A DNA stretch of 64,000 nt from an uncultured Chromatiales bacterium (GCA_964442745.1 CAYUAI010000010.1:3142-67141), one strand, 5' to 3'. Counted from the stretch's first letter, positions 25,993 through 64,000 are shown. The notes: generated by a model from the letters alone, not told the origin. A program made the numbers and translations.

Positions 25993-26123
25993 CATTGCAT
26001 TAAGCATCAGATTGAAGAAGTCGGATGTACTAGGTTATTTACGGCAGTTTATGTAGGTCGTAGTGATCGAAAATTAAGCTAACTATTGATTTGATGTGCT
26101 GATGGCGACCTACATACCTGGGG

Positions 26124-45272: not shown

Positions 45273-46481
45273 ATGCGCGTATCGACCATCGGGATGGCTC
45301 AGGCGTCACTCAATACGATGCTAACCCAGCAGGCGAACTTGAGTAAAACTCAGCTGCAAATTGCTTCTGGTAATCGAATGTTAGCGCCTGCTGATGATCC
45401 TTATAGCGCAGCGAATGCACTCAATATGGAAGAGAGAATTTCTATTACAGAGCAATATGAAGAAAATGTGATATTGGCTAAAAATCGGCTCAATCTAGAG
45501 GAAGGAATTTTAGCCAATGTTACGCTGGTCGCGCAGCGGCTTAACGAGTTAATCGTACAAGGTAAAAATGATAGTTTGACAAAAGAAAATCGCCAAACCA
45601 TTGCGGCAGAAGTGAATCAAATGCGTGACCAGCTGTTATCCTTGGCAAATACATCGGACAGCAATGGTGAATATCTTTTTGCGGGGTATAAGGGAAGTTC
45701 AAAACCGTTTACGCCCGATGGGGCTGGTAATTTTATTTACGGAGGGGATAGCGGTCAGCGTCGTATTCGAATCGGTCCGGCAACTAGTCTTCCTGTGGGT
45801 GATTCTGGAAATGAAGTATTTAGAGAGATTCGTACGGGTAATGGAACGTTTCGAGCTTCTGAGAATGCCGCTAACACCGGTACTGGGGTGATTTTTTCCA
45901 ATACGGTGGTCGGTACTTACATTCCCGATAATTACAATATTACATTTACCTCCCCCGCTATTGCAGGTAATCCCCCTGATTATACGGTGACAGATAGTGG
46001 CGGTGGAGTGGTTACCTCGGGCACTTATGCGAATGACAGTGCGATTTCATTTAACGGTCATCAAATCACGATAAAGGGCACACCGCAACCAGGGGATCGT
46101 TTTTTAACCGAGCCGAGCCCTAATCAGGATCTGTTTAAAACGGTGCAGGATTTTGCCGATGCCTTAGTGGTGGATACTTCAACGCCAACCGCGAAAGCGA
46201 TGTATCATAATGCGCTAACTCGGGTGAGTGAGAACTTAAATTCGGCCATGGATAATATTTTTGAGATAAGGTCTAAAGTCGGCGCCAGATTAAATAGCAT
46301 TGACAAACAAGAAATGATCAATGAAACCTTTATGCTGCAAATGAAAACCTCATTGTCAGCAATTAAAGATTTGGACTACGCTGAAGCAATCACTACCTTG
46401 AATTTGCAAATGACAGGACTGCAAGCCGCCCAACAATCTTATACAAAAATTCAAAGTTTATCGTTGTTCAACTACCTTTAG
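45273..46481 (+). CDS. flgL: Flagellar hook-associated protein 3 FlgL
   Basis: MRVSTIGMAQASLNTMLTQQANLSKTQLQIASGNRMLAPADDP with a flagellin-like N/C helical architecture. It lies directly after flgK. Confidence 0.85.
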   Translation: MRVSTIGMAQASLNTMLTQQANLSKTQLQIASGNRMLAPADDPYSAANALNMEERISITEQYEENVILAKNRLNLEEGILANVTLVAQRLNELIVQGKNDSLTKENRQTIAAEVNQMRDQLLSLANTSDSNGEYLFAGYKGSSKPFTPDGAGNFIYGGDSGQRRIRIGPATSLPVGDSGNEVFREIRTGNGTFRASENAANTGTGVIFSNTVVGTYIPDNYNITFTSPAIAGNPPDYTVTDSGGGVVTSGTYANDSAISFNGHQITIKGTPQPGDRFLTEPSPNQDLFKTVQDFADALVVDTSTPTAKAMYHNALTRVSENLNSAMDNIFEIRSKVGARLNSIDKQEMINETFMLQMKTSLSAIKDLDYAEAITTLNLQMTGLQAAQQSYTKIQSLSLFNYL

Positions 46482-46657: not shown

Positions 46658-47764
46658 ATGATGACGGATAAACTAGGTATCGATAGCCATAAGCTTATTT
46701 ACCATCCTAAGTATGTCGCACAATTGTTAGAAGTGGATAATGATTGGCAACGCGCCCAAAAAATATTTCCCCTGTATATCGAAATTTCCCCGGTGGGTGC
46801 CTGTAATCATCGCTGCACATTTTGTGCCGTAGATTATATTGGTTATCAAGCGAGAACCTTGGAGGCGGATAGGCTGATTACATGTTTGCACGAGATGGGT
46901 GCGCTCGGGGTAAAAAGCATTATGTATGCGGGTGAAGGTGAACCCCTGTTGCATAAACGGATTGATGAGATTGTTGTGGCCACCAAACAAGCGGGGATTG
47001 ATATCGCTTTTACCACCAACGCGACGGTGGTTAGCGATATTTTTCTTGATCAGGCATTACCCCATATTAGCTGGATAAAAACCTCTATTAACGCTGGCAG
47101 CGCAGATAACTACGCGAAAATTCATGGTACTCAAGCCAAAGATTTTGATCGAGTGATAGCTAATTTAGAAAAATTAGTTCGTCATAAAAAAAAGAGGGAT
47201 TTAGACTGTACACTTGGGGCTCAAATGCTTTTGTTGCCAGAGAATGCTCATGAAATATTCAGTTTGGCACAACTTTGCCGTGATGAAATTGGCCTTGATT
47301 ACTTGGTGATAAAACCGTATTCACAGCATTTATTCAGCCATACCAACCGTTATGAACATTTAGACTATGCTGAATATATGGCATTGGCGGATGATCTTGA
47401 AAGCCGTTCAAATGATCAGTTCAAGGTGATATTTCGTAAAAATAGTATGTTGCGATACAGTGATAAAGGTGATCGTTCTTACCATAAATGCATGGCAACA
47501 CCGCTGGTTTGGGCATACATAATGGCCGATGGTGCGGTATATGGTTGCAGTGCTTTTTTAAAAGATAAAAAATTTGAATATGGAAACATATATGAAAATA
47601 ATTTTTCAGAAATATGGACCGGAGAACAACGCAAAGTTGGGTTTGATTTTGTTAATACAGAACTCAACATTAAGCGCTGCCGAAAAAACTGCCGTATGGA
47701 AGCCGTCAATCAGTATTTGTATGAGTTAACAGAACAGCGGGTTCCGCATAGGAATTTCATCTAA
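46658..47764 (+). CDS. Radical SAM protein with C-terminal Cys-rich (SPASM/twitch-like) region
   Basis: The radical SAM motif is CNHRCTFC with GEGEP. The C-terminal cysteines are CMATP...GCSAF and CRKNCRME. It is a paralogue of the 53005-54402 gene, and both end in ...NFI. Confidence 0.75.
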   Translation: MMTDKLGIDSHKLIYHPKYVAQLLEVDNDWQRAQKIFPLYIEISPVGACNHRCTFCAVDYIGYQARTLEADRLITCLHEMGALGVKSIMYAGEGEPLLHKRIDEIVVATKQAGIDIAFTTNATVVSDIFLDQALPHISWIKTSINAGSADNYAKIHGTQAKDFDRVIANLEKLVRHKKKRDLDCTLGAQMLLLPENAHEIFSLAQLCRDEIGLDYLVIKPYSQHLFSHTNRYEHLDYAEYMALADDLESRSNDQFKVIFRKNSMLRYSDKGDRSYHKCMATPLVWAYIMADGAVYGCSAFLKDKKFEYGNIYENNFSEIWTGEQRKVGFDFVNTELNIKRCRKNCRMEAVNQYLYELTEQRVPHRNFI

Positions 47765-47818
47765 TACTAGATTTAATTGGACAGTTTTTTGTTATTTATG
47801 GAATTATCTAGATAGATT

Positions 47819-48805
47819 ATGCGAGCGTTAGTGACCGGTGGTGCTGGGTTTATTGGTAGTTATATAAGCGAAGCTTTGCTTAGGCAAGGGCATAGCGTTG
47901 TTATCGTCGATGATTTATCGGCGGGTAAGGAAGATAATATTAAGGCCCTCTTGAGGCATGAGCAAGTCGAATTTCATTGCTTGAATATCACGGAAAAAAA
48001 TCATTTAATGGATATTTTTAATGGGATTGATTGGGTTTTTCATCTTGCTGGTAAAGCAGATATTGTCCCCTCTATTGAACAGCCTGAGGTCTACTTCCAA
48101 ACCAATGTGCACGGTACTTTGAATGTTTTGCTTTGTGCAAAAAAAGCCCAAGTCAAAAAATTTGTGTATGCCGCCTCTTCGAGCAGTTATGGGTTACCCG
48201 ATATTTATCCTACGCCAGAAAATTCACCTATCCGACCACAATATCCTTATGCACTAACAAAATATATGGGAGAAGAGCTAGTCATGCATTGGGGCCAAGT
48301 TTATCAACTTCCGGTGATTTCATTACGCTTGTTTAATGTCTATGGTCCGCGTGCTCGGACACATGGGGCTTATGGGGCTGTATTTGGTGTTTTCCTAGCA
48401 CAAAAGTTTAATGGTCATCCTTTCACCGTCGTGGGTGATGGCACCCAAACGCGGGATTTTACCTATGTTACTGATGTTGCCGATGCCTTTATTAAAGCGG
48501 CCCAATCTGATCAGCAAGATGTTGTTATGAATGTTGGAAGCGGTAATCATTATAGCGTTAACAAGATTGTTGAGTTATTAGGTGGGGATGTGACCTATAT
48601 CCCGAAAAGGCCTGGGGAACCTGATTGTACCTTTGCTGATATATCTAGAATCCAATCCTTGCTGGAGTGGCAGCCATCAATTGACCTTGACCTCGGTGTT
48701 GCCAACATGCTTGAACACCGGGATGATTGGGGCAACGCCCCGGTTTGGTCGGCTGACGCCATCGAAGAAGCAACCCAAGTATGGTTTAATCATCTAACTC
48801 GGTAG
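47819..48805 (+). CDS. NAD-dependent sugar epimerase/dehydratase (SDR; GalE/HldD-like)
   Basis: The protein has the motifs [16 protein letters not shown] (YxxxK) and NVYGPR. Confidence 0.8.
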   Translation: MRALVTGGAGFIGSYISEALLRQGHSVVIVDDLSAGKEDNIKALLRHEQVEFHCLNITEKNHLMDIFNGIDWVFHLAGKADIVPSIEQPEVYFQTNVHGTLNVLLCAKKAQVKKFVYAASSSSYGLPDIYPTPENSPIRPQYPYALTKYMGEELVMHWGQVYQLPVISLRLFNVYGPRARTHGAYGAVFGVFLAQKFNGHPFTVVGDGTQTRDFTYVTDVADAFIKAAQSDQQDVVMNVGSGNHYSVNKIVELLGGDVTYIPKRPGEPDCTFADISRIQSLLEWQPSIDLDLGVANMLEHRDDWGNAPVWSADAIEEATQVWFNHLTR

Positions 48806-48812
48806 GTAATCC

Positions 48813-49409
48813 ATGGTTTTAGAGCAAGCACAAGTTAAGCAAGACTATCTCTATCAACAATCTATTGCTTATTTTAGTTCCATTCTTTCAAATACCTTGT
48901 TTACCGACAGTCGTAATGTTTTGTATGAAGCTGAGTATGGTTTTCATTATGGACTGGAACTCTTATCCGAGGTAGATAACAGTGATGGTAATGTCTATGT
49001 GATAGGCAACGGTGGCAGTGCGGCTATTGCTAGCCATATTGTGAATGATTTTTGTAATACTTCTGGCTTACGGGCACATATCTTACATGAACCAGCGCTG
49101 ATGACCTGCTTTGCCAATGACTATGGTTATGAAAACGCATACGCCTCATTATTGTCACGGGTGGCACGGCAGCAAGATTTATTGATTGCAATTAGCAGCT
49201 CGGGTAATTCAATTAATATTCATAACGCTGTTGATACTGCCCGTCAAATTGGATTAAATGTCATTACCTTGAGCGGTTTTTCCGAGGATAATGGGTTGCG
49301 CTGTATAGGGGATCTCAATATTTGGTTGGATGCCAGCCATTACGGTATGGTAGAGGTAGGTCATTTGTTCCTATTGCATCACTTAGCTGATCGTTACTCC
49401 AAAATATGA
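48813..49409 (+). CDS. SIS-domain sugar-phosphate isomerase (GmhA-like sedoheptulose-7-phosphate isomerase)
   Basis: VYVIGNGGSAAIASHIVNDF and AISSSGNSINIH follow the GmhA pattern. Confidence 0.7.
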   Translation: MVLEQAQVKQDYLYQQSIAYFSSILSNTLFTDSRNVLYEAEYGFHYGLELLSEVDNSDGNVYVIGNGGSAAIASHIVNDFCNTSGLRAHILHEPALMTCFANDYGYENAYASLLSRVARQQDLLIAISSSGNSINIHNAVDTARQIGLNVITLSGFSEDNGLRCIGDLNIWLDASHYGMVEVGHLFLLHHLADRYSKI

Positions 49410-49419
49410 CTTTTTCATT

Positions 49420-50937
49420 ATGAATCGAAAAATTTTATCTTTGGATGAACTCATTGCTTTATCTGAGAAGTATCGAGGTCAGGGAGAGAGCGTCGCCTTA
49501 TGTCATGGTACATTTGATTTATTACATATTGGGCATATTCGTCATTTGGCAGCAGCGCGGCGTCAATGTGACCGGTTGTTGATAACGATTACCGCCGACG
49601 CTTACGTCAATAAAGGGCCGGGAAGACCGGTATTCAATGAACAATTGCGTGCCGAACAATTAGCGGCGATTGAATATATTGATGGGATAGCGATTAATTA
49701 TGATACCACTTCGGTTAATGTTATTCATGCCGTCAAGCCCACGCTTTACATCAAAGGGAAAGATTATGAAAATAATCGAGAGGATGTCACCGGCAATATT
49801 CAAAAAGAAAAAAGGGCAGTTGAATCTTGTGGAGGTGATATCGCTTATACGGATGAGATAACATTTAGCTCAAGCAAGTTACTTAATGAGCATTTTGACG
49901 TATTTTCACCGGAGACTAAAGATTACCTCGATAAATTTAAACAACAGCATTCCTGCAAAGAAGTCATTGCCGTCATCGAAACGTTAAAAGATCTGCGTGT
50001 GCTTGTGGTGGGTGATACGATTATTGATGAATATTATTATACTTCTACATTGGGGAAAAGTGGTAAGTATAATGTATTAGCGGCACGTTTTAACAGTAGT
50101 GAGCGCTTTGCGGGTGGAGCGGTTGCAGTGGCCAATCATGTGGCGGGCTTTGTTAATTCGGTGACGCTGTTTACCGGTTTCGGCGCACAAAAAACAGAAG
50201 AAGCATTTGTTCGTTCTAAATTGAAAAGCAATGTTGAAATTTTTTTTATGGAATACCCAGAGGCTACAACCTTAATTAAAAGGCGTTATGTCGATGACAA
50301 CATGATAAAGTTGTTCGAGGTATATTATGGCGGTGAATATTTGCCAGATAGGGTGCTTAACGAATATGCATGCCAATGGTTGCATCATCATCTCGCCGAA
50401 TTTGATGTGGTTGTTGTACCTGATTATGGCAATGGGTTTATCACTGACTCTATGATTCAAGCCTTGTGTCAACAGTCACGTTTTTTAGCGGTGAATACGC
50501 AAATTAATAGCGGCAACCGAGGTTTTCACGTGATTACCCGGTATCCTCACGTTAATTTTGTTTCCCTCAATGAGCCAGAGTTACGCCTTGCTGCACATAG
50601 TCAACGCATGGAACTCACGGGTTTAATGGATACCATATGCCAATTGTTGCAAGCCTCACATATTGCGATCACGCGGGGCACAGAGGGCGTTTTGATGCAA
50701 GATAGAGGATTGCCTATACATCAAACACCAGCCTTGTCCACCCGCGTCGTTGATCGTGTGGGGGCCGGTGATGCATTTTTAGCGATGGCGAGTATTTTAT
50801 TGGGCGGTGGTGTAAAGAGTGATGTGGTTGCGTTTGTGGCGAGCGCCGCAGCGGCCATTGATGTACAAATCGTGTGTAATCGAGACACCATTGAGCCGGT
50901 TAATTTGTATAAATATATTACTACCTTATTAAAATAA
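49420..50937 (+). CDS. Bifunctional HldE-like protein: N-terminal cytidylyl/adenylyltransferase plus C-terminal PfkB-family sugar kinase (reversed domain order)
   Basis: The N-terminus CHGTFDLLHIGHIRHL is the HxGH nucleotidyltransferase motif. The C-terminus has the PfkB signature DRVGAGDAFLA. Confidence 0.7.
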   Translation: MNRKILSLDELIALSEKYRGQGESVALCHGTFDLLHIGHIRHLAAARRQCDRLLITITADAYVNKGPGRPVFNEQLRAEQLAAIEYIDGIAINYDTTSVNVIHAVKPTLYIKGKDYENNREDVTGNIQKEKRAVESCGGDIAYTDEITFSSSKLLNEHFDVFSPETKDYLDKFKQQHSCKEVIAVIETLKDLRVLVVGDTIIDEYYYTSTLGKSGKYNVLAARFNSSERFAGGAVAVANHVAGFVNSVTLFTGFGAQKTEEAFVRSKLKSNVEIFFMEYPEATTLIKRRYVDDNMIKLFEVYYGGEYLPDRVLNEYACQWLHHHLAEFDVVVVPDYGNGFITDSMIQALCQQSRFLAVNTQINSGNRGFHVITRYPHVNFVSLNEPELRLAAHSQRMELTGLMDTICQLLQASHIAITRGTEGVLMQDRGLPIHQTPALSTRVVDRVGAGDAFLAMASILLGGGVKSDVVAFVASAAAAIDVQIVCNRDTIEPVNLYKYITTLLK

Positions 50938-50940
50938 GTT

Positions 50941-51906
50941 ATGTTAGAGCCGTCATTATTGATTGATTTATATCGGAGTATGTTGCGTATTCGTCGGGTT
51001 GAAGAAACCTTGGCGGATCATTATGCGCAACAAGAAATACGTTGTCCAATGCATTTATGTATTGGGCAAGAAGCGATCGCTGCCGGTGTATGTCTCGCGT
51101 TAAATAGCCACGATGTAGTTTTTAGTAATCATCGGGCACATGGTCACTATTTGGCAAAGGGGGGTGATCTGAAGCGGATGATTGCTGAGTTATATGGTAA
51201 ATCTGAGGGTTGTTGTGGCGGTCTGGGAGGCTCGATGCATTTAATTGATAAAGCCGTCGGTTTTCTCGGTTCGACACCGATTGTTGGTGGTACCGTTCCA
51301 TTGGCAGTGGGTGCTGCTTGGTCTTTTCAATTATTGGAAAAGCGGCAAGTCGCGATTGCTTTTTTTGGTGATGGTTGCTTTGAAGAAGGCGTTGTCCATG
51401 AATCACTGAACTTTGCCTCGTTGCACAAGTTACCGGTTATTTTCGTTTGTGAAAACAATCAATATTCCGTGTACACACATATAAAAGATAGACAACCTGA
51501 TCGAAAAATTAGTGACATTGCCAACGCTCATGGTTGGCGAGTATGGCAGGGGGATGGCAATGATGTGGTTGCCAGTTATCAGATGGCAACGCAAGCGGTG
51601 GCCGATGCGAAATCCGCATTGGGTCCACAGTTTATCGAACTGGATACCTATCGATGGCGCGAGCATTGTGGGCCTGATTTTGATGATCACTTGGGGTATC
51701 GGGTAGGATCCGATCTTAGTGATTGGCAGCGACGCTGTCCTATTAAACGCTTATACCAGAGACTGGTTAATAACGACGCTCAGGTAGTGTCGACTCTAGA
51801 ACATCTTGGCAACACGATTATGGAGGAAATCATGGTGGCTTTTGAGTTTGCCAAAAGCTGTCCGATTCCCAGTCCACAACCCATGATACGTCGCGTTTTT
51901 TCCTGA
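50941..51906 (+). CDS. TPP-dependent dehydrogenase E1 component, alpha subunit
   Basis: The TPP-binding region is GDGCFEEGVVHESLNFASLHKLPVIFVCENNQY. It has the 2-oxoacid dehydrogenase E1-alpha fold. Confidence 0.8.
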   Translation: MLEPSLLIDLYRSMLRIRRVEETLADHYAQQEIRCPMHLCIGQEAIAAGVCLALNSHDVVFSNHRAHGHYLAKGGDLKRMIAELYGKSEGCCGGLGGSMHLIDKAVGFLGSTPIVGGTVPLAVGAAWSFQLLEKRQVAIAFFGDGCFEEGVVHESLNFASLHKLPVIFVCENNQYSVYTHIKDRQPDRKISDIANAHGWRVWQGDGNDVVASYQMATQAVADAKSALGPQFIELDTYRWREHCGPDFDDHLGYRVGSDLSDWQRRCPIKRLYQRLVNNDAQVVSTLEHLGNTIMEEIMVAFEFAKSCPIPSPQPMIRRVFS

Positions 51907-51909
51907 TAT

Positions 51910-52980
51910 ATGTCGCTTCGTTCTTTGAGTTATGCACAAGCCATTAATGAAGCATTAGTCTATTGCTTAGCAACTTATTCGAATACGCTATTAATTGGTG
52001 AAGGTGTGCCTGATCCAAAGGGTATTTTTAATACTACGTTAGATTTACCAAAAAAATTTGGTAAACATCGAGTGTTTGATATGCCTTTGGCGGAAAATGG
52101 TATGACCGGTGTGTGCATTGGTGCGGCTTTGGCGGGGCTTCGACCCATTATGGTACATCAGCGAATTGATTTTGCCTTGCTTGCCATGGATCAATTAATT
52201 AATAATGCAGCAAAATGGTTTTTTATGTTTAATGGCCAGTCGTCGGTACCGCTGGTGGTACGGCTTATTATTGGTCGAGGTTGGGGGCAAGGGGCGCAGC
52301 ACTCACAAAGTTTGCAGGCTTTATTTAGTCATGTACCAGGTCTTAAAGTGGTGATGCCGGTTTCTGCTTATGATGCTAAAGGTATGCTGATCAGCGCGAT
52401 TGAAGATGATAATCCAGTGATTTTTATCGAGCATCGTTGGTTGCACAATGGCATGGATCAAGTCCCTGAAAATGACTATCGAGTCCCTTTAGATCAAGCC
52501 AAGATCGTGATTATCGGTACAGATTTTACCATTGTGGCGTTTTCATTAATGGTGGTTGAAGCATTAAAAGTCGCCCGTGTATTGGCACAATACGGTATCA
52601 ATATCGAGGTGATTGATATGCGCTCATGCAATCCGCTTGATATGCCACCCGTCGTTGAATCAGTGAAAAAAACCGGACGAGTGATCGTGACCGATACCGG
52701 TACAGAGACGTGTGGTGTCAGTAGTGAAGTCATTACTCGTATTGTTGAGCAGGCCCATGAGTGGCTGAAATGTTCACCGATCAGACTGGCTGCACCAAAT
52801 CATCCCGTTCCGACGTCACCTTTTTTAGCCGATGGTTATTATATTGATGCGGAGAAAATTGCTCAATGTGTTTTAACTCGAATGGCGTGCGATACCTCTA
52901 TCACTGAGCAAGTCTTGCAAGCACTACGTCGAATTTCACCCAGGGATATTCCAGCCGCAGATTATGTCGGACCTTTTTAA
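51910..52980 (+). CDS. TPP-dependent dehydrogenase E1 component, beta subunit (transketolase-like)
   Basis: There is a pyrimidine-binding domain (FDMPLAENGMTGVCIGAALAGLRPI) and a C-terminal transketolase-C domain. It is translationally adjacent to the alpha subunit. Confidence 0.8.
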   Translation: MSLRSLSYAQAINEALVYCLATYSNTLLIGEGVPDPKGIFNTTLDLPKKFGKHRVFDMPLAENGMTGVCIGAALAGLRPIMVHQRIDFALLAMDQLINNAAKWFFMFNGQSSVPLVVRLIIGRGWGQGAQHSQSLQALFSHVPGLKVVMPVSAYDAKGMLISAIEDDNPVIFIEHRWLHNGMDQVPENDYRVPLDQAKIVIIGTDFTIVAFSLMVVEALKVARVLAQYGINIEVIDMRSCNPLDMPPVVESVKKTGRVIVTDTGTETCGVSSEVITRIVEQAHEWLKCSPIRLAAPNHPVPTSPFLADGYYIDAEKIAQCVLTRMACDTSITEQVLQALRRISPRDIPAADYVGPF

Positions 52981-53004
52981 ATATCCTTCATAAAGGAACA
53001 ATAC

Positions 53005-54402
53005 ATGGAAAATCATAAAAACTCGGTCAATCGCTTCGGCAAAAACACTACCACGGCGATACCAGATAATATACCGTTAGCCAAGCAACCTGGTCATAAA
53101 TTGCGTAGCTCCAATACCATTGTTGATCGTTCCGCTTTACCCGTACATTCATTGGCAATGACTCGCAATGTAGGGCAAGAAAAAACAAGTGATGCTCAGA
53201 CGATTGAATTAGTCCAGTTTGAAAACCAGTTCGGTTTAATTAGAAGGAAATCGGATGATCGATGTGATCGACCGATACCAAATATGTTTAGTGGACCATC
53301 AAATCGAAATCAACAACAACGTTTTCGATTTGATGGTCACAAAATGCTGCATCATCTAGATCACGTGCTTGCTTGGCAAAAAGGAGGAAAAATCGCCCCG
53401 ATTCACATTGATATGGGTTTGACAAAATATTGTAATACTGCCTGCCTGTATTGTTATGCGGTAGTGCAGAATATGACAAAAGGGAAAATGATTGGCTGTC
53501 AGGCATTGTTAAATTTCATTGAAGACTGTGGGCGTTTAGGCGTTCGATCTTTAGGTTTTATTGGTGATGGTGAACCCACCTTAAATCCGGCACTTTATGA
53601 GGCAACAGTGTTGGCGGCGAGTCATGGCATTGATACCGCAATGGCCACTAATGGTTTGTTATTGGATATGGATCGAGCACATGATGTATTGGCGAATATG
53701 TCCTGGATAAGATTTAACCTGTCTGCAGGTAGTGCGACGGGGTTTCAGAAAGTCCATCAATCAAAAGCTAAAAACTTTGATTTGCTCATTGAAAAAATTC
53801 GTAATTTAGTTCAACTGAAAAAACAATATGGTTATCAATGTACCATTGGTTTGCAAATGGTATTGATTCCAGAGTGCTTTGATGAAGTCATTGCCGAGGC
53901 CAAACTTGGCCAGGAATTAGGCGTGGATTATTTTGTGATTAAACATTGTTCCGATTCAGAATACAAAGAAATCGGTGTGAATTATGATGATTATAAGCGG
54001 GTCGCCGAGAAACTGAAATGTGCGGAAAGCTATTCCAATGATGAATATGTCGTGCAAGTGAAGTGGAATAAAATTAACGCCAATGGTGAAACTGATTTGT
54101 ATAAAAATGGTTATCGAAAATACGATGTTTGCATGGGAACGCCTTTTTTACTGCAAATTTCTGGCAATGGTAAAATCTATCCGTGCGGTCCATTTTTTAA
54201 TAAAGAGCGATTTTACATGGGTGACTTGCACGAGCATGCTTTTTATGACTTAGTGAATAGTGATCATTATTGGGCAGTACACCAAGATATCGCAAACAGT
54301 GTCGATGTGCATAAAGATTGTGCCATTGGCTGTCGGCAAGATTACATCAATAAATTTCTTTGGGATTTAAAAAATCCACCTGAACATGTGAATTTTATTT
54401 AG
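53005..54402 (+). CDS. Radical SAM protein with a ~100 aa N-terminal extension; paralogue of the 46658 gene
   Basis: The radical SAM motif is CNTACLYC with GDGEP. The C-terminus CMGTP...YPCGPF...CAIGC...NFI aligns with the paralogue. The RBS is aaaggaacaatacATG. Confidence 0.7.
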   Translation: MENHKNSVNRFGKNTTTAIPDNIPLAKQPGHKLRSSNTIVDRSALPVHSLAMTRNVGQEKTSDAQTIELVQFENQFGLIRRKSDDRCDRPIPNMFSGPSNRNQQQRFRFDGHKMLHHLDHVLAWQKGGKIAPIHIDMGLTKYCNTACLYCYAVVQNMTKGKMIGCQALLNFIEDCGRLGVRSLGFIGDGEPTLNPALYEATVLAASHGIDTAMATNGLLLDMDRAHDVLANMSWIRFNLSAGSATGFQKVHQSKAKNFDLLIEKIRNLVQLKKQYGYQCTIGLQMVLIPECFDEVIAEAKLGQELGVDYFVIKHCSDSEYKEIGVNYDDYKRVAEKLKCAESYSNDEYVVQVKWNKINANGETDLYKNGYRKYDVCMGTPFLLQISGNGKIYPCGPFFNKERFYMGDLHEHAFYDLVNSDHYWAVHQDIANSVDVHKDCAIGCRQDYINKFLWDLKNPPEHVNFI

Positions 54403-54409
54403 ACTTTAT

Positions 54410-56194: not shown

Positions 56195-56346
56195 TGGATA
56201 AATCTCTGGCTAAAAAGGACATAACATATCTCTTGCTATAATTTAGCATAGGATATGCCAGTGTCTATTGATAACTGGGTTGGCACGATGTTTTCATGGA
56301 ATATTCGATTAAATCAATGGATCTTATTTTAATAATATAAAGCAAG

Positions 56347-57630
56347 ATGAAAATTACTCAGAATCATCAAATCATGCAACAGCGATGGCCTAGTTTATTG
56401 GATAAATTAACGAGGTCAAATGAAAAACTGGATATACAGGTGCTGTATCACAACAATGAAAAAACGTTGCTGGTTAATGGTATTCACTTAAGTAGTATTT
56501 ATGATAAAAATAAAGAAGCACAATTGCAGGCAAGCCTAGTGCCGTGCGAAAAATCTCAGGTATTTGTTTATGGCGTAGGTTTAGGTGATATACCACGTGT
56601 ATTGTTAAAAAGAAAGGCACTGATTGAGTTGGTGTGTGTTGTTTTAAACAAGTCGATTTTCTACCAAGTGATTATGGAATTTGATTGTTCAAATTGGTTG
56701 CAAGATGAACGAGTACGTTTGCTCTTTGCTAATGAGGAAACTCAACTTCAATATCCATTTTCGACCCAGCCTGCCTGTTTGAAGTTAGCTAATGAAGCAG
56801 TCTATCATTTGCGTGATCAAATTTTATTGGAGTTGTCAACGCCACATATCCAACAGAAATTTAGTGAAAAAAAAGTTATTTACCAGCAGCAAATTGAAGA
56901 AAATATTTTTTATATTAAAAATGATGGCGATGTGAGTAGCTTTTTTAATCGCTATCCTGGACAGGCTGCACTCATTGTTGGGGCAGGTCCAAGTTTATTA
57001 GATAATTATGACTGGATACGAGAAAATCGTGATAATTATTTTATAATTTCGGTCAGTTCAGCTGTGATTCCGCTAATGGCAGAAAATATAATTCCAGATG
57101 CAGTGGTTGTTATTGAGCCACAAGAAGACGCAATATTTCCCGTATTCGATATTGATTTGACATTGCTTAGCAAAGTACCTTTAGTTTACTTTCCTATCGT
57201 TTCAAAGCGAGTGTTAGCGTTGTGGAAAGGTAAACGTTTTACGGCATATGGTCAGCACAAAATTTATGAGAAAATGGCAGTTCAATATCCTAAAGGATAT
57301 TTGTTTGCTGCTGGTACAGTGGTGCACTCCGCGATTGATTTAGCCGTTAAAATGGGCGTAAGGAAAATTGTATTGGCCGGAGTGGATTATGCTTTTTCAA
57401 ATGAACTGCAACATGCTACGGGTGCTCGTTCAAGAAATATTCTGGTGCCAGAGACAGGTGAGTATGTGGTTTTTAATGGCTATAATGAAAAGATTCAATC
57501 GTCGCCGAGCTTAATTGGTTTTTTACGTGATACTGAACATTATATTGCTTGTCATCCACAGGTTGAGTTTTACAATATGAGTCGATCAGGTGCTAAAATT
57601 AAAGGCGCAACTTATTTAGATGGTGCTTAG
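56347..57630 (+). CDS. maf: Motility accessory factor (Maf; DUF115/MptE-like) flagellin glycosyltransferase family
   Basis: ALIVGAGPSLLDNYDWIRENRDNYFIISVSSAV...PDAVVVIEPQ is the DUF115 core. Confidence 0.8.
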   Translation: MKITQNHQIMQQRWPSLLDKLTRSNEKLDIQVLYHNNEKTLLVNGIHLSSIYDKNKEAQLQASLVPCEKSQVFVYGVGLGDIPRVLLKRKALIELVCVVLNKSIFYQVIMEFDCSNWLQDERVRLLFANEETQLQYPFSTQPACLKLANEAVYHLRDQILLELSTPHIQQKFSEKKVIYQQQIEENIFYIKNDGDVSSFFNRYPGQAALIVGAGPSLLDNYDWIRENRDNYFIISVSSAVIPLMAENIIPDAVVVIEPQEDAIFPVFDIDLTLLSKVPLVYFPIVSKRVLALWKGKRFTAYGQHKIYEKMAVQYPKGYLFAAGTVVHSAIDLAVKMGVRKIVLAGVDYAFSNELQHATGARSRNILVPETGEYVVFNGYNEKIQSSPSLIGFLRDTEHYIACHPQVEFYNMSRSGAKIKGATYLDGA

Positions 57631-57900
57631 ATGACAAATAGGATTTCATTGAAAATACAGCGTACCAGCAACGCCTTTCGATTAGGTATGGAAAGCAAAG
57701 GTGGCCAATTGTTTTCTGAGCTCATTGATGAACTTCTAGAGGTAATATCAAGTTCAGCATCGGATGAACTATTGGGGAAATTCAATAGACTTTTACAGCA
57801 AATGATAGAAGCACAATTGAAAGCAGATTTTTTGTATTTAGCCGATTTAATTGAATATGAGTTAACTGATGCTTTGCGTGAAATAGATAAACGAAATTAA
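57631..57900 (+). CDS. Small hypothetical protein (89 aa)
   Basis: An ORF abutting the maf stop (ATG overlapping TAG). It is helical and acidic. I recognise no family. Confidence 0.35.
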   Translation: MTNRISLKIQRTSNAFRLGMESKGGQLFSELIDELLEVISSSASDELLGKFNRLLQQMIEAQLKADFLYLADLIEYELTDALREIDKRN

Positions 57901-57930
57901 TTTTATGTAGTCATTTGAGGTTTAAAAATT

Positions 57931-58101
57931 ATGTCAGAAATTTTAAAAGGTAATTTTAAAACAAAAAATCAAGTAGTTTATCAGCCAGAAAAAAATAATA
58001 CTTTGGAAGAAATATTTGAAAAAGAGGCATTGAAAAAATTAGGCGGCAGTATTGCTTTTGTCTCAAAAAAGAAAGTGATGTGGGATGATAACAAGGATTA
58101 A
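57931..58101 (+). CDS. Small hypothetical ORF (56 aa), not in the supplied track
   Basis: ATG at 57931 after ttgaggtttaaaaatt. It reads MSEILKGNFKTKNQVVYQPEKNNTLEEIFEKEALKKLGGSIAFVSKKKVMWDDNKD. Confidence 0.3.
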   Translation: MSEILKGNFKTKNQVVYQPEKNNTLEEIFEKEALKKLGGSIAFVSKKKVMWDDNKD

Positions 58102-58127
58102 CCCAGTTTTTCTGCCTGGAGGTTTTC

Positions 58128-59165
58128 ATGAGTGTCTTAGAAAATAAACAGCCGCCTATCGGTATGGCGCTGGTGGATAATATGCTGAATTTGACTAGCG
58201 AACGCACCACTGGGCAAGGACTGGATAATGCGGAACGAAATCAGCAGTTTTTACACCATGGGCAATCATTGGTCGCGTTGAGGAATCAATCTTTAGCCGA
58301 AGGAAATCAATGTATTGTGATTGCGGCAGGGCCTAGCATCAAACGACAAGACCCCTTGTCAATACTGAAAAAAACAGATTATAACGGCGCTATCATTGTG
58401 ACAGATAGTGCATTGTTCTATTGTTTACGAAACAAAATTATTCCAGACCTGGTGGTTACTTTGGACCCCCATGCGAAAAGAATTGTACGCTGGTTTGGAG
58501 ATCCTAATTTAACCAAAAAGGATATTATCGCCGATGACTATTTCCGTCGTCAGGATATGGATGAGGCCTTTGCTAATGAATGGCAAGTTAATGAAGAAAT
58601 ATTGACGTTGTTAGATAAATATGGCAAAGACATCAAGATTGCATTATCCACTTCAGCCTCCAGTGCTGTGGTGAATCGAGCCATTGATAGTGAGATGCAA
58701 ATTTATTGGTGGAATCCGATGTATGATGATCCCGAGCAGGAAAATAGTGTGACGGGGGGATTGTATCAACGGAATAAACTACCTTGTGTTAACGCCGGTG
58801 GCAATGTCGGGACAGCGTGTTGGATGATGGCGCATGCGGTTCACAATAAAAAACAGGTGGCAATAACGGGCATGGACTTTGGTTATTATGACGATACCCC
58901 TTATGAAAAGACGCAGTATTACAAAGAAGCTGTGGCCTTATTTGGTCAGGAGCAATTGGAAAATTATTTTGTCCGTGTCTTTAATCCGCATGAGAATCGA
59001 TGGTTTTACACCGACCCGGCTTATATGTGGTATCGAGAGTGCTTGTTCGATTTATTACCTGAGGCGGATTGTATGACATATAATTGTACTGAAGGTGGGA
59101 TTGTGTTTGGAGAGAATATTGATTATCTACCCTTGCATAAATTTTTAACCTGTGGTGTAACATAG
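58128..59165 (+). CDS. DUF115/MptE-like (Maf-related) protein
   Basis: CIVIAAGPSIKRQDPLSIL...IIVTDSALFYCLRNKIIPDLVVTLDPH is a DUF115 core. Confidence 0.7.
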   Translation: MSVLENKQPPIGMALVDNMLNLTSERTTGQGLDNAERNQQFLHHGQSLVALRNQSLAEGNQCIVIAAGPSIKRQDPLSILKKTDYNGAIIVTDSALFYCLRNKIIPDLVVTLDPHAKRIVRWFGDPNLTKKDIIADDYFRRQDMDEAFANEWQVNEEILTLLDKYGKDIKIALSTSASSAVVNRAIDSEMQIYWWNPMYDDPEQENSVTGGLYQRNKLPCVNAGGNVGTACWMMAHAVHNKKQVAITGMDFGYYDDTPYEKTQYYKEAVALFGQEQLENYFVRVFNPHENRWFYTDPAYMWYRECLFDLLPEADCMTYNCTEGGIVFGENIDYLPLHKFLTCGVT

Positions 59166-59182
59166 TAATCAAGAAAAATTCC

Positions 59183-60769
59183 ATGGCCAAAGTATTATTT
59201 ATCAATCCCGTTGTGAGAGAAGAAGATGATCCGCGGCATGTGCCTTATGGTATTGCTTTGTTGGCAGCGATTGCTATGGAGCAAGGTTGTCTCGTGCAGG
59301 TTTATGATGAAAATGCTTGGCGACGAGGTGAACAAACACTCATTGAGGTATTGCAGGCCGACAGTTGGGATGTGATTGCATTGGGAGGTATTACAACCGC
59401 CTATGCTTCTCTAAAGCAGATTGTAAAACTGGGGAATCAACAATCTCCACAGAGCAAGATTATTATTGGTGGTGGTGTATTAACCTCGTTACCTAATGAG
59501 ATTATGAAATTTTTGCCAGAGGTGGATATTGGTGTGATTGGCGAGGCATTTCAAACCTTTCCCGAAATATTAGCAATGATTGATGCCGGTGATCAACAAT
59601 GGCAAGACATTGATGGAACAGTTTCAAGAAATCATCAGGGTAAGTTGGTTTTTGGAAAGCAAAGAGCCTTATTAGAAAGCCTGGATAGCTTGCCTTATCC
59701 TGCATGGGATTTGTTTCCGTTAGAGGAAGTTTATTTCCCCAACAGTCAGGTACTTTTTTCGGAAGAAGGGATGTTGGCGAAAAGACGTTTAGATATCAAC
59801 GCTAGTTACGGTTGTTCATTGATTTGTCGTTATTGCTACCATTTAGGCATTGCCGGTGATATGCGTTATCAATCTGATGAATTCGGCAATACCCAGATTC
59901 ATTTTGATGAGCCGGGAAATTACTCAAGAACAATACGTTATCACAGTCCTGAATATATCGTGAAGTTGGTTAAATACGCCTATGATAAATACGATATCGA
60001 TTTTATTGGTTTTCTCGATGAAAACTTAATGACCATGGACCAATATTCAAAGAAAACATGGTTAAAAGAAATTACTCGGCTGTGGATTGAATATGGCTTG
60101 CAACCCAGCTGTATCCGTGATGGTGTCTCCCATGATGAGCACTGTCGGGGTGTGCATTGGTCGGGTACGAGTCATGCGACGCTTTGCAATCCTGAGACCT
60201 TAAAAATGATGAGGCAGGCGGGTTGTTCACATTTAGTGTATGGTTATGAGTCGTTTTCCCGACATGTCATGAAAACTATTGGCAAAGGTGCCACTCCGAA
60301 AACCAATATGAGAAGTTTTTTTTGGACGTTGGAATCAGGGATTCGCCCGATCCCAAATCAAATTATTGGCTTTCCCAATGAAGACTTTCTATCAATCTAC
60401 GAGAATATGGCAGCGTGGAAACAATTAGGCATTGTAGTAAAGCCTTTTTTTGCAACGCCGTATCCTGGCTCTGAATGGTTTACCGTGTATCGAGATCAGA
60501 TTATGAAACAATACCAAGGTGATCTTGAACAATATTTGCTAGATCTTGGTGATGCAACACGGATAACAGCCGTCATTTCGCATAACTTTAATGCGGTCGA
60601 ATTGTTGGGCTTACGGGAGTTAATGGTTAATTTTGACTATCAGCGTATTCGAGAATATGAAGTCTATTGGCGAAAGGCGCATCATATTGCGGATGGTGAT
60701 CCTTCAACAGTGTATGTGCCCGTTGGCACTAAAGATCCATTGCTGAAAAAAATTGCTTTTTTTAAATAA
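59183..60769 (+). CDS. B12-binding-domain radical SAM protein (class B; candidate methyltransferase)
   Basis: The N-terminal cobalamin-binding Rossmann region is VLFINPV...DVIALGG. The radical SAM motif is CSLICRYCYH. Confidence 0.8.
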   Translation: MAKVLFINPVVREEDDPRHVPYGIALLAAIAMEQGCLVQVYDENAWRRGEQTLIEVLQADSWDVIALGGITTAYASLKQIVKLGNQQSPQSKIIIGGGVLTSLPNEIMKFLPEVDIGVIGEAFQTFPEILAMIDAGDQQWQDIDGTVSRNHQGKLVFGKQRALLESLDSLPYPAWDLFPLEEVYFPNSQVLFSEEGMLAKRRLDINASYGCSLICRYCYHLGIAGDMRYQSDEFGNTQIHFDEPGNYSRTIRYHSPEYIVKLVKYAYDKYDIDFIGFLDENLMTMDQYSKKTWLKEITRLWIEYGLQPSCIRDGVSHDEHCRGVHWSGTSHATLCNPETLKMMRQAGCSHLVYGYESFSRHVMKTIGKGATPKTNMRSFFWTLESGIRPIPNQIIGFPNEDFLSIYENMAAWKQLGIVVKPFFATPYPGSEWFTVYRDQIMKQYQGDLEQYLLDLGDATRITAVISHNFNAVELLGLRELMVNFDYQRIREYEVYWRKAHHIADGDPSTVYVPVGTKDPLLKKIAFFK

Positions 60770-60791
60770 GAATCCATGGAAGGAGGGTGAG

Positions 60792-61547
60792 ATGAACCAT
60801 CCCAGTGTATTGATCGTGGTACCGGCACGCAGTGGCTCTAAGGGCTTACCTAGGAAAAATACCAAACAGCTCGGGGATTTGCCATTGCTGGCATGGACGG
60901 CTGAAGCCATCAAACGAGCTAGCCTAATAAATTGTACGGCGCTATTGAGTACGGATAATGAGGAAATCGCTAGAATCGGTCAAGTGGCTGGGTTGTCCGT
61001 GCCTTTTTTTCGGCCAAACGAACTGGCTCAAGATAACTCAAGTGTGGTTGATGTCGCGTTACATGCGCTGTCATGGCAGTGTCATTGGCAAGCGTTACCG
61101 GATGTTATTATGTTGTTGCAACCGACTTCACCCTTTCGAAATCCGGAAACCATTCGTCAAGCATTATCGCTATTGTATGAAAAAAAAGTGGATGCAGTGA
61201 TTGGTGTTAAAGCTATTTTTCGATCCTTGCAAACGATTTTTTATGCCGATGCCCAAGGTAAGTTATCTGCCCTCAATGCCGAATCAGAAAAATTGGCGAC
61301 CCGCCGTCAAGACGTTGAGCCGTTATTGACTCCCAATGGTGCCATGTATTTGGTTAAAACCGAAGTGTTGCAACAACAAAAGACATTTTTTCCCGCAAGT
61401 ATCTATGGTTTAAAAATGGATGAAATTAGCAGTCATGATATTGACATCCCCGATGATTGGTTGATTGCGGAGGCATTTTATTCAGCACAAAAAACCTGGC
61501 GGCACGACCTTAAATTCAAAAATATAGTGTCAGCACAGAATTTTTAA
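60792..61547 (+). CDS. Acylneuraminate cytidylyltransferase family (CMP-nonulosonic/CMP-Kdo-type sugar activating enzyme)
   Basis: VLIVVPARSGSKGLPRKN is the CTP_transf_3 signature. The RBS is aggagggtgagATG. The ORF track start at 60753 is upstream. Confidence 0.8.
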   Translation: MNHPSVLIVVPARSGSKGLPRKNTKQLGDLPLLAWTAEAIKRASLINCTALLSTDNEEIARIGQVAGLSVPFFRPNELAQDNSSVVDVALHALSWQCHWQALPDVIMLLQPTSPFRNPETIRQALSLLYEKKVDAVIGVKAIFRSLQTIFYADAQGKLSALNAESEKLATRRQDVEPLLTPNGAMYLVKTEVLQQQKTFFPASIYGLKMDEISSHDIDIPDDWLIAEAFYSAQKTWRHDLKFKNIVSAQNF

Positions 61548-61577
61548 TATGAGTTGAATTCAAATGATCCTGGTACG

Positions 61578-64000
61578 TCAAGCGCTGTTCTTCAGATAGT
61601 TCATGAACGCTTGAGCTTCCAGGTTGTTGGGTTGGTTTTTTAAAATATAATCAAAAACCCATTGAGCGGAATCAAAAATTCCTACGCTATAATATAATTT
61701 TCCTAGTTGCATAAACGTGGGAAAATCTTCAGGGTTGTTTTGCAGGTAATCGGTGTAGATGCCAATAGCGGTTTGGTTATTTCCTGCCTTATTGAGCAAT
61801 TCTGCATATATGGGCATAAACGCTTGGGTTAATGTACATAGCCGGTCTAGCAACTTGAGTGCTTCAGGGGTTTGTTGCTTTATCAGATATATTGTCGTTG
61901 CTCGTGATAACGCCTCTTCAATGATGTTTTCTAAGGAAATATCGAGGTACAATGGTAATGCTTGATCTATTTCACCCTGGATATCCCATAAGTAGGCTTG
62001 AGTGATTGCGCGATATTGATGGGTGTCGATATTTTTGAACTCCTGAATTTTAAGTAACAAATCATTGAGTCCTTGAATATTTTTTTGTATGAAATATTGT
62101 TTTGCTTTGTTGCCAATACCTTTTAGCCCCGTATCATCAGCTTGATATTGACGATGAGTTGATTTTTTATTTAACAAGGCTGAGAATTTTTCGTTCATGC
62201 CTTGCAAATAGCATTGGCTAGTTTGGTCTAGGTTTGCATAACTTGCTGCATGCTGGTTTTTCCACAAATGTGCTCGACCAAAATGTTGATCTTTTGTCCA
62301 TCGGCGAGTGAGCCGTTGGAAATCTGGATTATCTTGATCTTCGATAATTCGGGTTTGGGTTTTATCGATGCAGTCTTCAACTCGATGTAAAATAATTCGG
62401 ATGGTTTTTTTATATGTTTTATAATAGGCCTGACTAGCTTTCATGGCTTCTTCGTGGCTGGGTAATTTGTCAGGGGACGGGCTGACAATGCTCATGAATT
62501 CGTTGGCAGCATAGGCGCGTACAAATGATGTAGCATCATGATATGTGGTCTTAAATGTTTCATTTATGATATCCAGCTGTACATTTAAATATGAGAGTGT
62601 TTGGTGATTGTCAGTCTGTTTGATTTTGGCAAGAAATTTTAATGCCTGATGGGTTAATTTTTTTATTTTGTTTAATTGTGCGTGCAGTTTTTCCAGCTCT
62701 GTCATGGAAGCTTGTCGAATGTTGATTCGATCCTGTGCGGAGAGCGTCGGGATTGCATCATGAATCGTTTGAGCCATCATTTGTTCAATAGACGTCAATT
62801 GAATATTTTGTATGGGGATATAGTCAACATCAGCTAATTGGGTTGCATACCCGGTTGGATTAATCACCGTATGACCGGAGGCTTTGGCTTGCTTGGCGAG
62901 ATTTTCCATGGGCTTGATGGCGTTAACAAAATAACGACTGGTTTCGGCTTGCCGACCGTCATTGGTGGTCACCACTAGGTTGTTATTAGTGATCAAGGGA
63001 CCAGCTTTGTATTCATTGCTGCCTTTGGCGTGGGTATAACCTTCCGGGCTAAAGCATAAATCAACGCCACAAAGAATGATTTGTTTAAATCCCATAATAA
63101 TTGCTGTATGTATGGCTGTGTTGATGACGGTGGGGGCACAAATGTCAAAATTTTTCTGATTCGCGGGTGTAAACCATGGGTATTTGGTGCCTAAAAAAGC
63201 AGTTTTACCATTATATTGTCCCAGTAGCATGTGATTCACATGATTACCATTAATCAATAAAATGTCGTTGAATTTTAGAATCTCTTTGCTGTTGTCAAAG
63301 CTTTTTTGGGTTGGATCAATACTAACAAAAATATCAGGCACTAAATCGACTTCTAATAAGCGTTTGCACATTCGTGGCGCTGCGATTACTACTATATTTT
63401 TTCGGTTTTTTTTAATCCAGTCGATATAGTCATCTAATGATGGGCCGCCGCCCAAAATGACACAAGAATGTCCGCAGAAAATGTTTTTAATAAATAAACT
63501 TGGCTGAATATTATCTGGAATATTTAGCAACATTTGGTCAATAAAGAATTTTTCTTGCAGAATGGTTCTGATTTTTTGCACCACTCGATGGGCATCTTGA
63601 GTTAGTTGTGAGGCGAGTGGAATATAGTCAGATAGATGGGCCTCTTTAGACGCGATAGAATGCGTAAATTGTACGCTGTTAGTGAGAGCGTAACGTTCCA
63701 AATCAAGTTTTTTTGCGGTATTATGCCAGTCATCAATGATGCATAGGTCTATATTTTTATGGATGGGAAATGAGGGAACCTGACGACGGATTAAATCAAT
63801 GACAGGCGCAAAGTCGACAAAAAGATAACGACAATTTTTGTTGTTGTGCTTGAGAATATGATGTACTAATAATCCTGAGTCGGTACCGATAATAAGATGA
63901 AATTGATTTTCTTGAAAGATATTTCTCCCATAAATTTTTTGATAAATATCGCTGGAACATGTTTGGGCGAAGGTGTTACCTGTTACCGAGTAAAGGTATC
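61578..64000 (-). CDS. maf: Maf/DUF115 protein with C-terminal TPR repeats; 5' end lies beyond the window
   Basis: The DUF115 core is CVILGGGPSLDDYIDWIKKNRKNIVVIAAP...PDIFVSIDP. The C-terminal ~150 aa are TPR-like. By manual translation the minus-strand frame stays open from 63701 to 64000, with no stop. The track start at 63701 is simply the first TTG after the window edge. Confidence 0.75.
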   Translation of the reverse strand, partial: YLYSVTGNTFAQTCSSDIYQKIYGRNIFQENQFHLIIGTDSGLLVHHILKHNNKNCRYLFVDFAPVIDLIRRQVPSFPIHKNIDLCIIDDWHNTAKKLDLERYALTNSVQFTHSIASKEAHLSDYIPLASQLTQDAHRVVQKIRTILQEKFFIDQMLLNIPDNIQPSLFIKNIFCGHSCVILGGGPSLDDYIDWIKKNRKNIVVIAAPRMCKRLLEVDLVPDIFVSIDPTQKSFDNSKEILKFNDILLINGNHVNHMLLGQYNGKTAFLGTKYPWFTPANQKNFDICAPTVINTAIHTAIIMGFKQIILCGVDLCFSPEGYTHAKGSNEYKAGPLITNNNLVVTTNDGRQAETSRYFVNAIKPMENLAKQAKASGHTVINPTGYATQLADVDYIPIQNIQLTSIEQMMAQTIHDAIPTLSAQDRINIRQASMTELEKLHAQLNKIKKLTHQALKFLAKIKQTDNHQTLSYLNVQLDIINETFKTTYHDATSFVRAYAANEFMSIVSPSPDKLPSHEEAMKASQAYYKTYKKTIRIILHRVEDCIDKTQTRIIEDQDNPDFQRLTRRWTKDQHFGRAHLWKNQHAASYANLDQTSQCYLQGMNEKFSALLNKKSTHRQYQADDTGLKGIGNKAKQYFIQKNIQGLNDLLLKIQEFKNIDTHQYRAITQAYLWDIQGEIDQALPLYLDISLENIIEEALSRATTIYLIKQQTPEALKLLDRLCTLTQAFMPIYAELLNKAGNNQTAIGIYTDYLQNNPEDFPTFMQLGKLYYSVGIFDSAQWVFDYILKNQPNNLEAQAFMNYLKNSA

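Follow-up and report, generated by a model that had tools for sequence, protein, structure and literature searches.

A predicted legionaminic acid operon and a widespread seven-gene sugar cassette in the flagellin-glycosylation island of an uncultured gammaproteobacterium

A 64,000-nucleotide stretch of DNA from an uncultured Chromatiales bacterium (GCA_964442745.1, CAYUAI010000010.1:3142-67141; hereafter, the window) ends inside a flagellin-glycosylation island that lies between flgL and the flagellins of this gammaproteobacterium. The island spans ∼27 kb from flgL to the flagellin genes, and the window holds its left two-thirds. It is built of two modules: Module A, which runs from 56347 to ∼71.5 kb when the window numbering is continued, unites Maf proteins with genes for CMP-activated legionaminic acid (Leg), and Module B (46658-56194) is a tight seven-gene sugar operon, here called the cassette, with an adjacent CgeB-like glycosyltransferase (GT). 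We consider it reasonably probable that the island as a whole pairs a canonical Leg/Maf system with an operon making a second flagellin sugar. For the cassette itself we propose, with somewhat more doubt than confidence, an undescribed pathway to a nucleotide-activated higher-carbon or C-branched sugar (heptose-like precursor, C-C bond formation dependent on thiamine pyrophosphate (TPP), two radical S-adenosylmethionine (SAM) steps) that would serve polysaccharides and, here, flagellin as a second sugar beside Leg. An earlier reading of the window, made without database searches (the sequence-only reading), had already taken the genes after flgL for a flagellin-glycosylation island, and the gene content from flgL to the flagellin genes bears this out.

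Results

The sequence-only reading had remarked that none of the usual genes for pseudaminic acid (Pse) or Leg is present. This holds inside the 64 kb, where tblastn with NeuB, NeuC, LegC, LegH, and PtmE gave no match, but it does not hold for the island. Contigs of two other assemblies (L001 and L002), retrieved by exact look-up of two window proteins, match the window at 100% identity over 14,818 and 4,637 bases and extend it; with each other they share 7,308 identical bases, 2,671 of which lie past the window. A Leg operon on the minus strand begins only 86 bases past the window end, and the "missing" Leg pathway is thus an artefact of the window edge. Pse or Leg genes right after the window had been named in the sequence-only reading itself as one half of what would speak against it, the other half being that the window's enzymes prove dispensable, and the first half is borne out. 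The minus-strand order past the third Maf gene is PtmE-like, LegH-like, NeuB/LegI, NeuC/LegG, LegC, LegB, and a fourth Maf gene with tetratricopeptide repeats (TPR). Membership in curated families was judged by NCBIfam equivalog cut-offs, which are exceeded by LegB (TIGR04180, 518.1 bits against 475), LegC (TIGR04181, 518.8 against 420), LegG/NeuC (453.6 against 235.9), and LegI/NeuB (448.8 against an equivalog cut-off of 399.65); LegH is an acetyltransferase of the NeuD/PglD family (197 bits against the NeuD family cut-off of 160.8). Because the NeuD, NeuC, and NeuB models fail to separate Leg enzymes from those for N-acetylneuraminic acid (Neu5Ac), the assignment to Leg rests on LegB, LegC, and the protein in the PtmE position, which has 349 aa with CBS and NTP_transferase domains. 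Judged by these matches, the legB-legC-legG-legI-legH-ptmE operon is complete; the precursor genes PtmA, PtmF, and GlmU were not found within the stretch read.

The sequence-only reading had also suggested looking beyond 64 kb for the flagellin gene. Past the fourth Maf gene, gene content was read in a relative rather than on the contig of the window itself: a metagenome contig whose DNA is 86% identical across the Leg operon continues with two 277-aa flagellins, both Ser/Thr-rich in mid-protein, and with FlaG, FliD, FliS, and FleQ. FleQ, PtsP, and the gene order fit a gammaproteobacterium with a polar flagellum. GuaA of the window shares no more than 79% identity with sequences from named organisms, which are Chromatiales, Thiohalobacter, Thioalkalivibrio, and further Gammaproteobacteria.

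This arrangement has close parallels. The flagellins of Plesiomonas shigelloides carry Leg, and PtmE-LegH-LegI-LegG-LegC-LegB lie in its polar flagellar cluster (PMC4481668); the Leg cluster of strain 302-73 has the same operon order as the island and a LegF-type CMP transferase, within polar flagellar genes (PMC4481668). The Leg pathway of Campylobacter jejuni is likewise found with Maf proteins as presumed transferases. The island differs from the clusters of both species in having four Maf genes (two with TPR), a B12 radical SAM gene in the Maf block, and an extra 9.5-kb sugar module without counterpart.

Gene content within the window was established by listing open reading frames (ORFs) and by Pfam scans of the window proteins. 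The window holds three Maf genes, and the fourth lies past it (E-values 2e-16 to 7e-42). Maf1 (56347-57630, plus strand, 427 aa) matches MptE-like with an E-value of 7e-39, Maf2 (58128-59165, plus strand, 345 aa) is a short form with a partial match (E 2e-16), and Maf3 (61578-64000 and beyond, minus strand; E 7e-42) has C-terminal TPR. The reading frame of Maf3 is open to the window's last base, and both extending contigs place its start codon at window-equivalent 64052, 52 bases outside, giving a full protein of 824 aa. The sequence-only reading had therefore listed correctly, now with domain support, three Maf proteins, one of them fused to TPR and running off the window, and a CgeB-like GT. 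Between maf1 and maf2 lie two small ORFs of 83 aa and 56 aa (57649-58101, plus strand), which are called as genes in contig L001 and recur as a pair in L088, a relative whose kinase-transferase is 67% identical to that of the window; the 83-aa ORF has a precomputed DUF8042 match that a fresh hmmscan did not reproduce. A weak sigma-54-like motif of the form TGGCAC-N5-TTTC (TGGCACGATGTTTTCA, 56281-56296, plus strand, one mismatch to consensus) lies ∼50 nt upstream of maf1; matches to the motif over the whole window number no more than chance would give, and the site is weakly consistent with FleQ-type control.

Downstream of Maf2 follow a B12-binding (class B) radical SAM gene (59183-60769, plus strand; B12-binding and Radical_SAM domains) and a gene for a LegF/NeuA-like CMP-nonulosonate synthetase (60792-61547, plus strand; CTP_transf_3, E 5e-19), for which the nearest equivalog is PseF (138.8 bits against a cut-off of 205.7). 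The block Maf-DUF8042 ORF-56-aa ORF-short Maf-B12 radical SAM-CMP transferase is kept as a unit in L088 beside a differing cassette, and we assign the NeuA-like gene to the Leg/Maf block and not to the cassette. In related loci the CMP transferase was seen only together with NeuB-like or other Leg genes, and there is none within 10 kb in 43 of the 48 full-length cassette loci described below.

These results bear on a further suggestion of the sequence-only reading, namely that the island uses no nonulosonate synthase route and that the cassette instead builds a nine-carbon sugar from a heptose and a two-carbon unit, which the NeuA-like enzyme activates with CMP and the Maf proteins transfer. 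Three points speak for it: there is no pse or leg gene inside the window, a Sedimenticola locus (L072) has Maf and cassette genes side by side with no nonulosonic acid (NulO) gene seen in the 10 kb fetched, and Maf enzymes, according to a preprint, can accept CMP-Neu5Ac and the CMP-activated form of 3-deoxy-D-manno-octulosonic acid, CMP-Kdo (bioRxiv 10.1101/2020.06.03.131540). We nevertheless regard it as highly improbable given the apparently complete Leg operon 86 bases away, the position of the CMP transferase among Maf genes here and its association with Leg genes elsewhere, its rarity near the cassette, and the presence in the cassette of a nucleotidyltransferase of its own. A CMP-activated nonose replacing Leg is therefore unsupported; the count of seven plus two carbons may apply to a sugar activated by a nucleoside diphosphate (NDP).

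The cassette occupies the plus strand directly after flgL, with intergenic gaps of just 3-54 bases. Its first gene, rSAM1 (46658-47764), encodes a radical SAM/SPASM protein (Pfam Radical_SAM and SPASM) and is followed by genes for a short-chain dehydrogenase/reductase (SDR; 47819-48805; Epimerase, E 2e-61), a GmhA-like but divergent sugar-phosphate isomerase (SIS; 48813-49409; SIS_2), a 505-aa nucleotidyltransferase-kinase (NT-kinase; 49420-50937) with a CTP_transf_like domain at its N-terminus and a PfkB kinase domain at its C-terminus (Pfam), TPP-dependent E1 alpha (50941-51906; E1_dh, E 5e-62) and E1 beta (51910-52980; Transket_pyr and Transketolase_C) subunits, and, as the last gene of the operon, a second radical SAM/SPASM protein, rSAM2 (53005-54402; Pfam). 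The SIS, the reversed HldE-like NT-kinase, the SDR, and the E1 pair, together with the B12 radical SAM and NeuA-like genes of Module A, had all been located accurately in the sequence-only reading.

That reading had described the two cassette radical SAM enzymes as paralogues with SPASM-like tails. The paralogy is confirmed (31% identity, E 1e-56), but the tails, with just four cysteines each, are twitch-like and leave space for one auxiliary cluster. rSAM1 has a CX3CX2C motif at residues 49-56 in addition to its four C-terminal cysteines, and its orthologues are 60-67% identical across phyla. rSAM2 carries an N-terminal extension of ∼105 aa relative to rSAM1, and its orthologues are 62-73% identical in loci that also hold the CgeB-like GT. 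An AlphaFold model of rSAM1 made from 31 orthologues (mean pLDDT 78.8) has DesII as its best solved structural neighbour (TMq 0.64-0.70), followed by SuiB, SkfB, BlsE, and viperin. DesII is also the best sequence match among solved structures (E 2e-6, identity 16-17%). Because DesII ranks first by both sequence and fold, and because BlsE and viperin are among the next neighbours, we infer that rSAM1 acts on a nucleotide sugar. DesII, which acts on TDP-4-amino-4,6-dideoxyglucose, shares the CX3CX2C core with rSAM1 but is not its equivalog (TIGR04426, 58.4 bits, cut-off 450). With its four-Cys C-terminal domain, rSAM1 represents a separate and highly conserved family. Both cassette radical SAM proteins terminate in His-x-Asn-Phe-Ile (47750-47764 and 54388-54402), and the motif is invariant in the 31 rSAM1 orthologues.

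The best PDB matches of the SDR are UDP-hexose 4-epimerases, and it has the motifs AASSSSYG and YALTK (YxxxK) and no TDE dehydratase motif. By these features it is a GalE/WbpP-like nucleotide-sugar epimerase or oxidoreductase rather than an HldD-like enzyme or a 4,6-dehydratase; a role as heptose 4,6-dehydratase was considered and rejected since the TDE motif is absent. The SIS reaches 78.6 bits with the GmhA model (cut-off 209.45), and in alignment with Escherichia coli GmhA it keeps the ISSSGNS phosphate loop, H61, and H180, with the catalytic E65 changed to D and Q172 to E. The idea that this protein might serve the Leg pathway as its PtmF/GlmS-type isomerase was rejected, since it resembles GmhA and accompanies the cassette in genomes that show no Leg genes close by. 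The NT-kinase reaches 165.6 bits with the HldE model (cut-off 521) and has the opposite domain order, and the SDR reaches 117.4 bits with the HldD model (cut-off 274.6). The enzyme classes therefore match those of the ADP-L-glycero-beta-D-manno-heptose pathway (an SIS enzyme with GmhA-like loop and His residues, a PfkB kinase with a cytidylyltransferase-like domain, and an extended SDR), but the cassette departs from that pathway in scoring far under its equivalog cut-offs, in the reversed order of the bifunctional protein, in an SDR closer to GalE/WbpP than to HldD, in the Asp at the position of catalytic Glu65, and in the lack of a GmhB.

Both E1 subunits score under the pyruvate dehydrogenase equivalog cut-offs, and Pfam scans detected no lipoyl or E2 domain and no E3 in the island, so that the pair stands alone. 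E1 pairs add a two-carbon branch to sugars of avilamycin (AviB1/AviB2) and paulomycin (Pau11/Pau12) (PMC4425429), and these too are E1 alpha/beta pairs without E2 or E3 within a sugar cluster. The likeness is one of gene context: the Avi and Pau enzymes belong to actinomycete antibiotic pathways and act on 4-keto-hexoses, possibly after glycosyl transfer, whereas the cassette pair lies in the context of a heptose-like NDP-sugar with two radical SAM enzymes. By this analogy the TPP step would transfer a two-carbon unit, and the presence of a split transketolase in E1's place in nine full-length loci argues that TPP-dependent two-carbon transfer is an integral step of the pathway.

The CgeB-like GT (54410-56194, minus strand, 594 aa; Glyco_trans_1_2, E 4e-10) adjoins the cassette tail to tail. 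Its N-terminal part (55550-56194, minus strand, residues 1-215) is a tandem duplication of a ∼100-aa module (residues 1-103 against 113-215, 35% identical, E 5e-20) with no Pfam match, and the duplication is kept in the cassette-linked GTs of Methylococcales. The GT aligns over its full length with GTs encoded after the cassette in Methylomonas and Methylobacter (35-38% identity) and with that of L088 (60% identity). Of the flagellar loci, three were read far enough to show the neighbouring GT (the window, Sedimenticola L072, and L088), and in each of them a CgeB-like GT accompanies the cassette core of SDR, SIS, and NT-kinase. The CgeB-like GT is likely, from this co-occurrence, to be the transferase for the cassette product.

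To survey the cassette we used the NT-kinase as anchor protein. At E<1e-20 this protein, HldE-like but with reversed domains, has 5928 relatives, the 120 best of which are typically 54-59% identical, and relatives were confirmed in at least 558 species genomes. Eighty genomic loci, plus three from exact look-ups, had their ORFs called and labelled by BLASTP with the window proteins; 48 of them were full-length, i.e., with at least 8 kb on either side. Among these 48, the SIS is present in 40, the SDR in 38, rSAM1 in 35, a second radical SAM gene in 30, and a TPP enzyme of any kind in 37 (the E1 pair in 30, a split transketolase in 9), while a NeuB-like gene lies nearby in 9 and the CgeB-like GT in 6. 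The 80 loci cover many phyla. The full order recurs in Methylomonas, Methylobacter, Gallionella, Nitrospira, Nitrospina, and Magnetococcales and also in Zetaproteobacteria, Herbaspirillum, Vogesella, Aquitalea, and Polynucleobacter; rearranged or partial cassettes occur in Acanthopleuribacter, Omnitrophota, and Elusimicrobia. Conservation between distant phyla is strong (rSAM1 ∼62% identical, NT-kinase 45-58%). Where a split transketolase replaces the E1 pair (L062, 14969-19516; L019, 14313-15173), it is accompanied by a kinase of the APH type, a SAM methyltransferase, and a further radical SAM/SPASM enzyme.

Most of the 80 loci are polysaccharide loci and flagellar ones are seldom seen, which raises the question of whether the cassette was gained by horizontal transfer as a module for a sugar of a surface polysaccharide (lipopolysaccharide, capsule, or exopolysaccharide), came to lie beside flgL by chance, and has no part in flagellin modification. 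In Sulfuricaulis the cassette sits among GT2, GT4, and WecA-like genes, and in Methylomonas it is followed by CgeB-like GTs and lies beside efflux genes, away from flagellar genes; Maf or flagellar genes are found in only 2 of the 48 full-length loci. GC content falls to 0.35-0.37 at 54000-58000, as compared to ∼0.43 elsewhere, and this dip, which takes in the CgeB-like GT and maf1, suggests their separate acquisition. However, the cassette here is part of the island itself, flanked by flgL on one side and by Maf, Leg, and flagellin genes on the other, and the island has no polysaccharide export or polymerase genes. Four other loci, those of Thiomonas, a gammaproteobacterial metagenome-assembled genome, and two Sedimenticola genomes, also have the cassette immediately behind flgK-flgL or beside Maf. 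In Thiomonas and the metagenome-assembled genome, flgK-flgL is followed directly by the cassette. Sedimenticola sp. 3502E has flgK, flgL, flagellin, a 154-aa ORF, fliD, a 148-aa ORF, Maf, and the cassette, and then a CgeB-like GT, an unknown gene, a sulfotransferase, and a B12 radical SAM gene; one Sedimenticola island thus shares Maf, cassette, CgeB-like GT, and B12 radical SAM with the window. We consider an origin as a chance-placed polysaccharide module unlikely, though it is the alternative to which we give most weight.

The survey also bears on whether the cassette might supply a substituent of Leg, such as an unusual N-acyl or C-linked group, so that flagellin would bear a single, heavily modified nonulosonate. 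Leg and Pse carry varied N-acyl groups, and NulO genes adjoin the cassette in 9 of the 48 full-length loci, including non-flagellar ones (L009, L011, L013, L024, and L086). Yet a kinase-nucleotidyltransferase and a CgeB-like GT of its own suggest that the cassette yields a separate glycosyl donor, and NulO genes are absent from the 10 kb around most cassette loci, which leaves a Leg substituent as a quite unlikely product.

The left border of the island is formed by flgK (43259-45262, plus strand; FlgK_D1, E 6e-77) and flgL (45273-46481, plus strand), the latter encoding a 402-aa FlgL with Flagellin_N/C domains. An Rfam search of the window gave no match, and antisense "families" that appeared in all-against-all clustering were shadow ORFs and were discarded. 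Elsewhere in the window, there is a solitary rmlB gene for dTDP-glucose 4,6-dehydratase 20 kb upstream of the island (24928-26007, minus strand; 493 bits, cut-off 365), and an ArsM-like methyltransferase gene (28513-29637) reaches 350 bits with the arsinothricin ArsM model, under its cut-off of 500. Two large paralogous proteins of 733 aa (2676-4877) and 850 aa (5119-7671) share a domain with the C-terminal part of the myxosortase-dependent M36 peptidase model, and stretches of the 850-aa protein match decahaem c-type cytochrome models.

Discussion

The flagellar part of this island is ordinary, a further Leg/Maf island, and it illustrates that a pathway can seem to be missing only because the window ends too soon. 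By analogy with well-studied homologues of its genes, PtmE, LegB, LegC, LegH, LegG, and LegI of Module A would make Leg via the GDP-N-acetylglucosamine route, the NeuA-like enzyme would activate it as CMP-Leg, and the four Maf proteins would place it on Ser/Thr residues of the two short flagellins; the B12 radical SAM enzyme probably tailors Leg.

For Module B we infer each chemical step from enzyme class and gene context. The SIS would isomerise a ketose phosphate, either sedoheptulose-7-phosphate or a similar sugar, and the kinase and nucleotidyltransferase domains would then make the NDP-sugar. The GalE-like SDR and the DesII-like rSAM1 could create a carbonyl or deoxy centre by redox or radical activation, after which E1 would add a two-carbon unit and rSAM2 would carry out a final radical step. 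The CgeB-like GT would add the product, as a second sugar, to the flagellin glycan or to flagellin directly. The most likely product, judged from the genes, is thus an NDP-activated heptose-like sugar with a TPP-added two-carbon unit, used as the second flagellin sugar. The sequence-only reading had favoured a heptose-derived, C-branched or C-methylated sugar activated by CMP or NDP; a heptose-like, nucleotide-activated, TPP-modified sugar is still the best reading of the radical SAM, SDR, SIS, NT-kinase, and E1 enzymes, but activation by CMP is not.

Several observations weigh against this account of the cassette. No Module B enzyme reaches a curated NCBIfam cut-off, so the substrate may be a heptose or another ketose. 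The SDR lacks the dehydratase motif expected of an enzyme that supplies the usual 4-keto acceptor, and neither the island nor the recurrent cassette neighbours include a GmhB-type phosphatase of the haloacid dehalogenase family. L088 (8125-17471) keeps the GT, SDR, SIS, and NT-kinase without rSAM1, E1, or rSAM2, having in their stead a sugar C-methyltransferase (Methyltransf_13/14), a DUF6016 protein, an RmlD-like reductase, and a 637-aa B12 radical SAM enzyme. Flagellar genes accompany so few of the full-length loci that the cassette could serve another glycoconjugate here too.

We found no description of the cassette in curated families or in the searchable literature, and neither comparative papers on flagellin glycosylation islands nor the SugarBase preprint mention any of its enzymes. 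To our knowledge, these enzyme types are not known to work together in sugar-nucleotide synthesis. As far as these sources show, the cassette, though widespread, is an undescribed form of nucleotide-sugar biosynthesis. Many environmental bacteria carry it, among them methanotrophs, nitrite oxidisers, iron oxidisers, and magnetotactic bacteria, and its cultured carriers include Methylobacter tundripaludum SV96, Methylomonas, Herbaspirillum lusitanum, Vogesella, and Aquitalea. Identifying the product of the cassette would extend the known range of bacterial sugars and, probably, of radical SAM chemistry.

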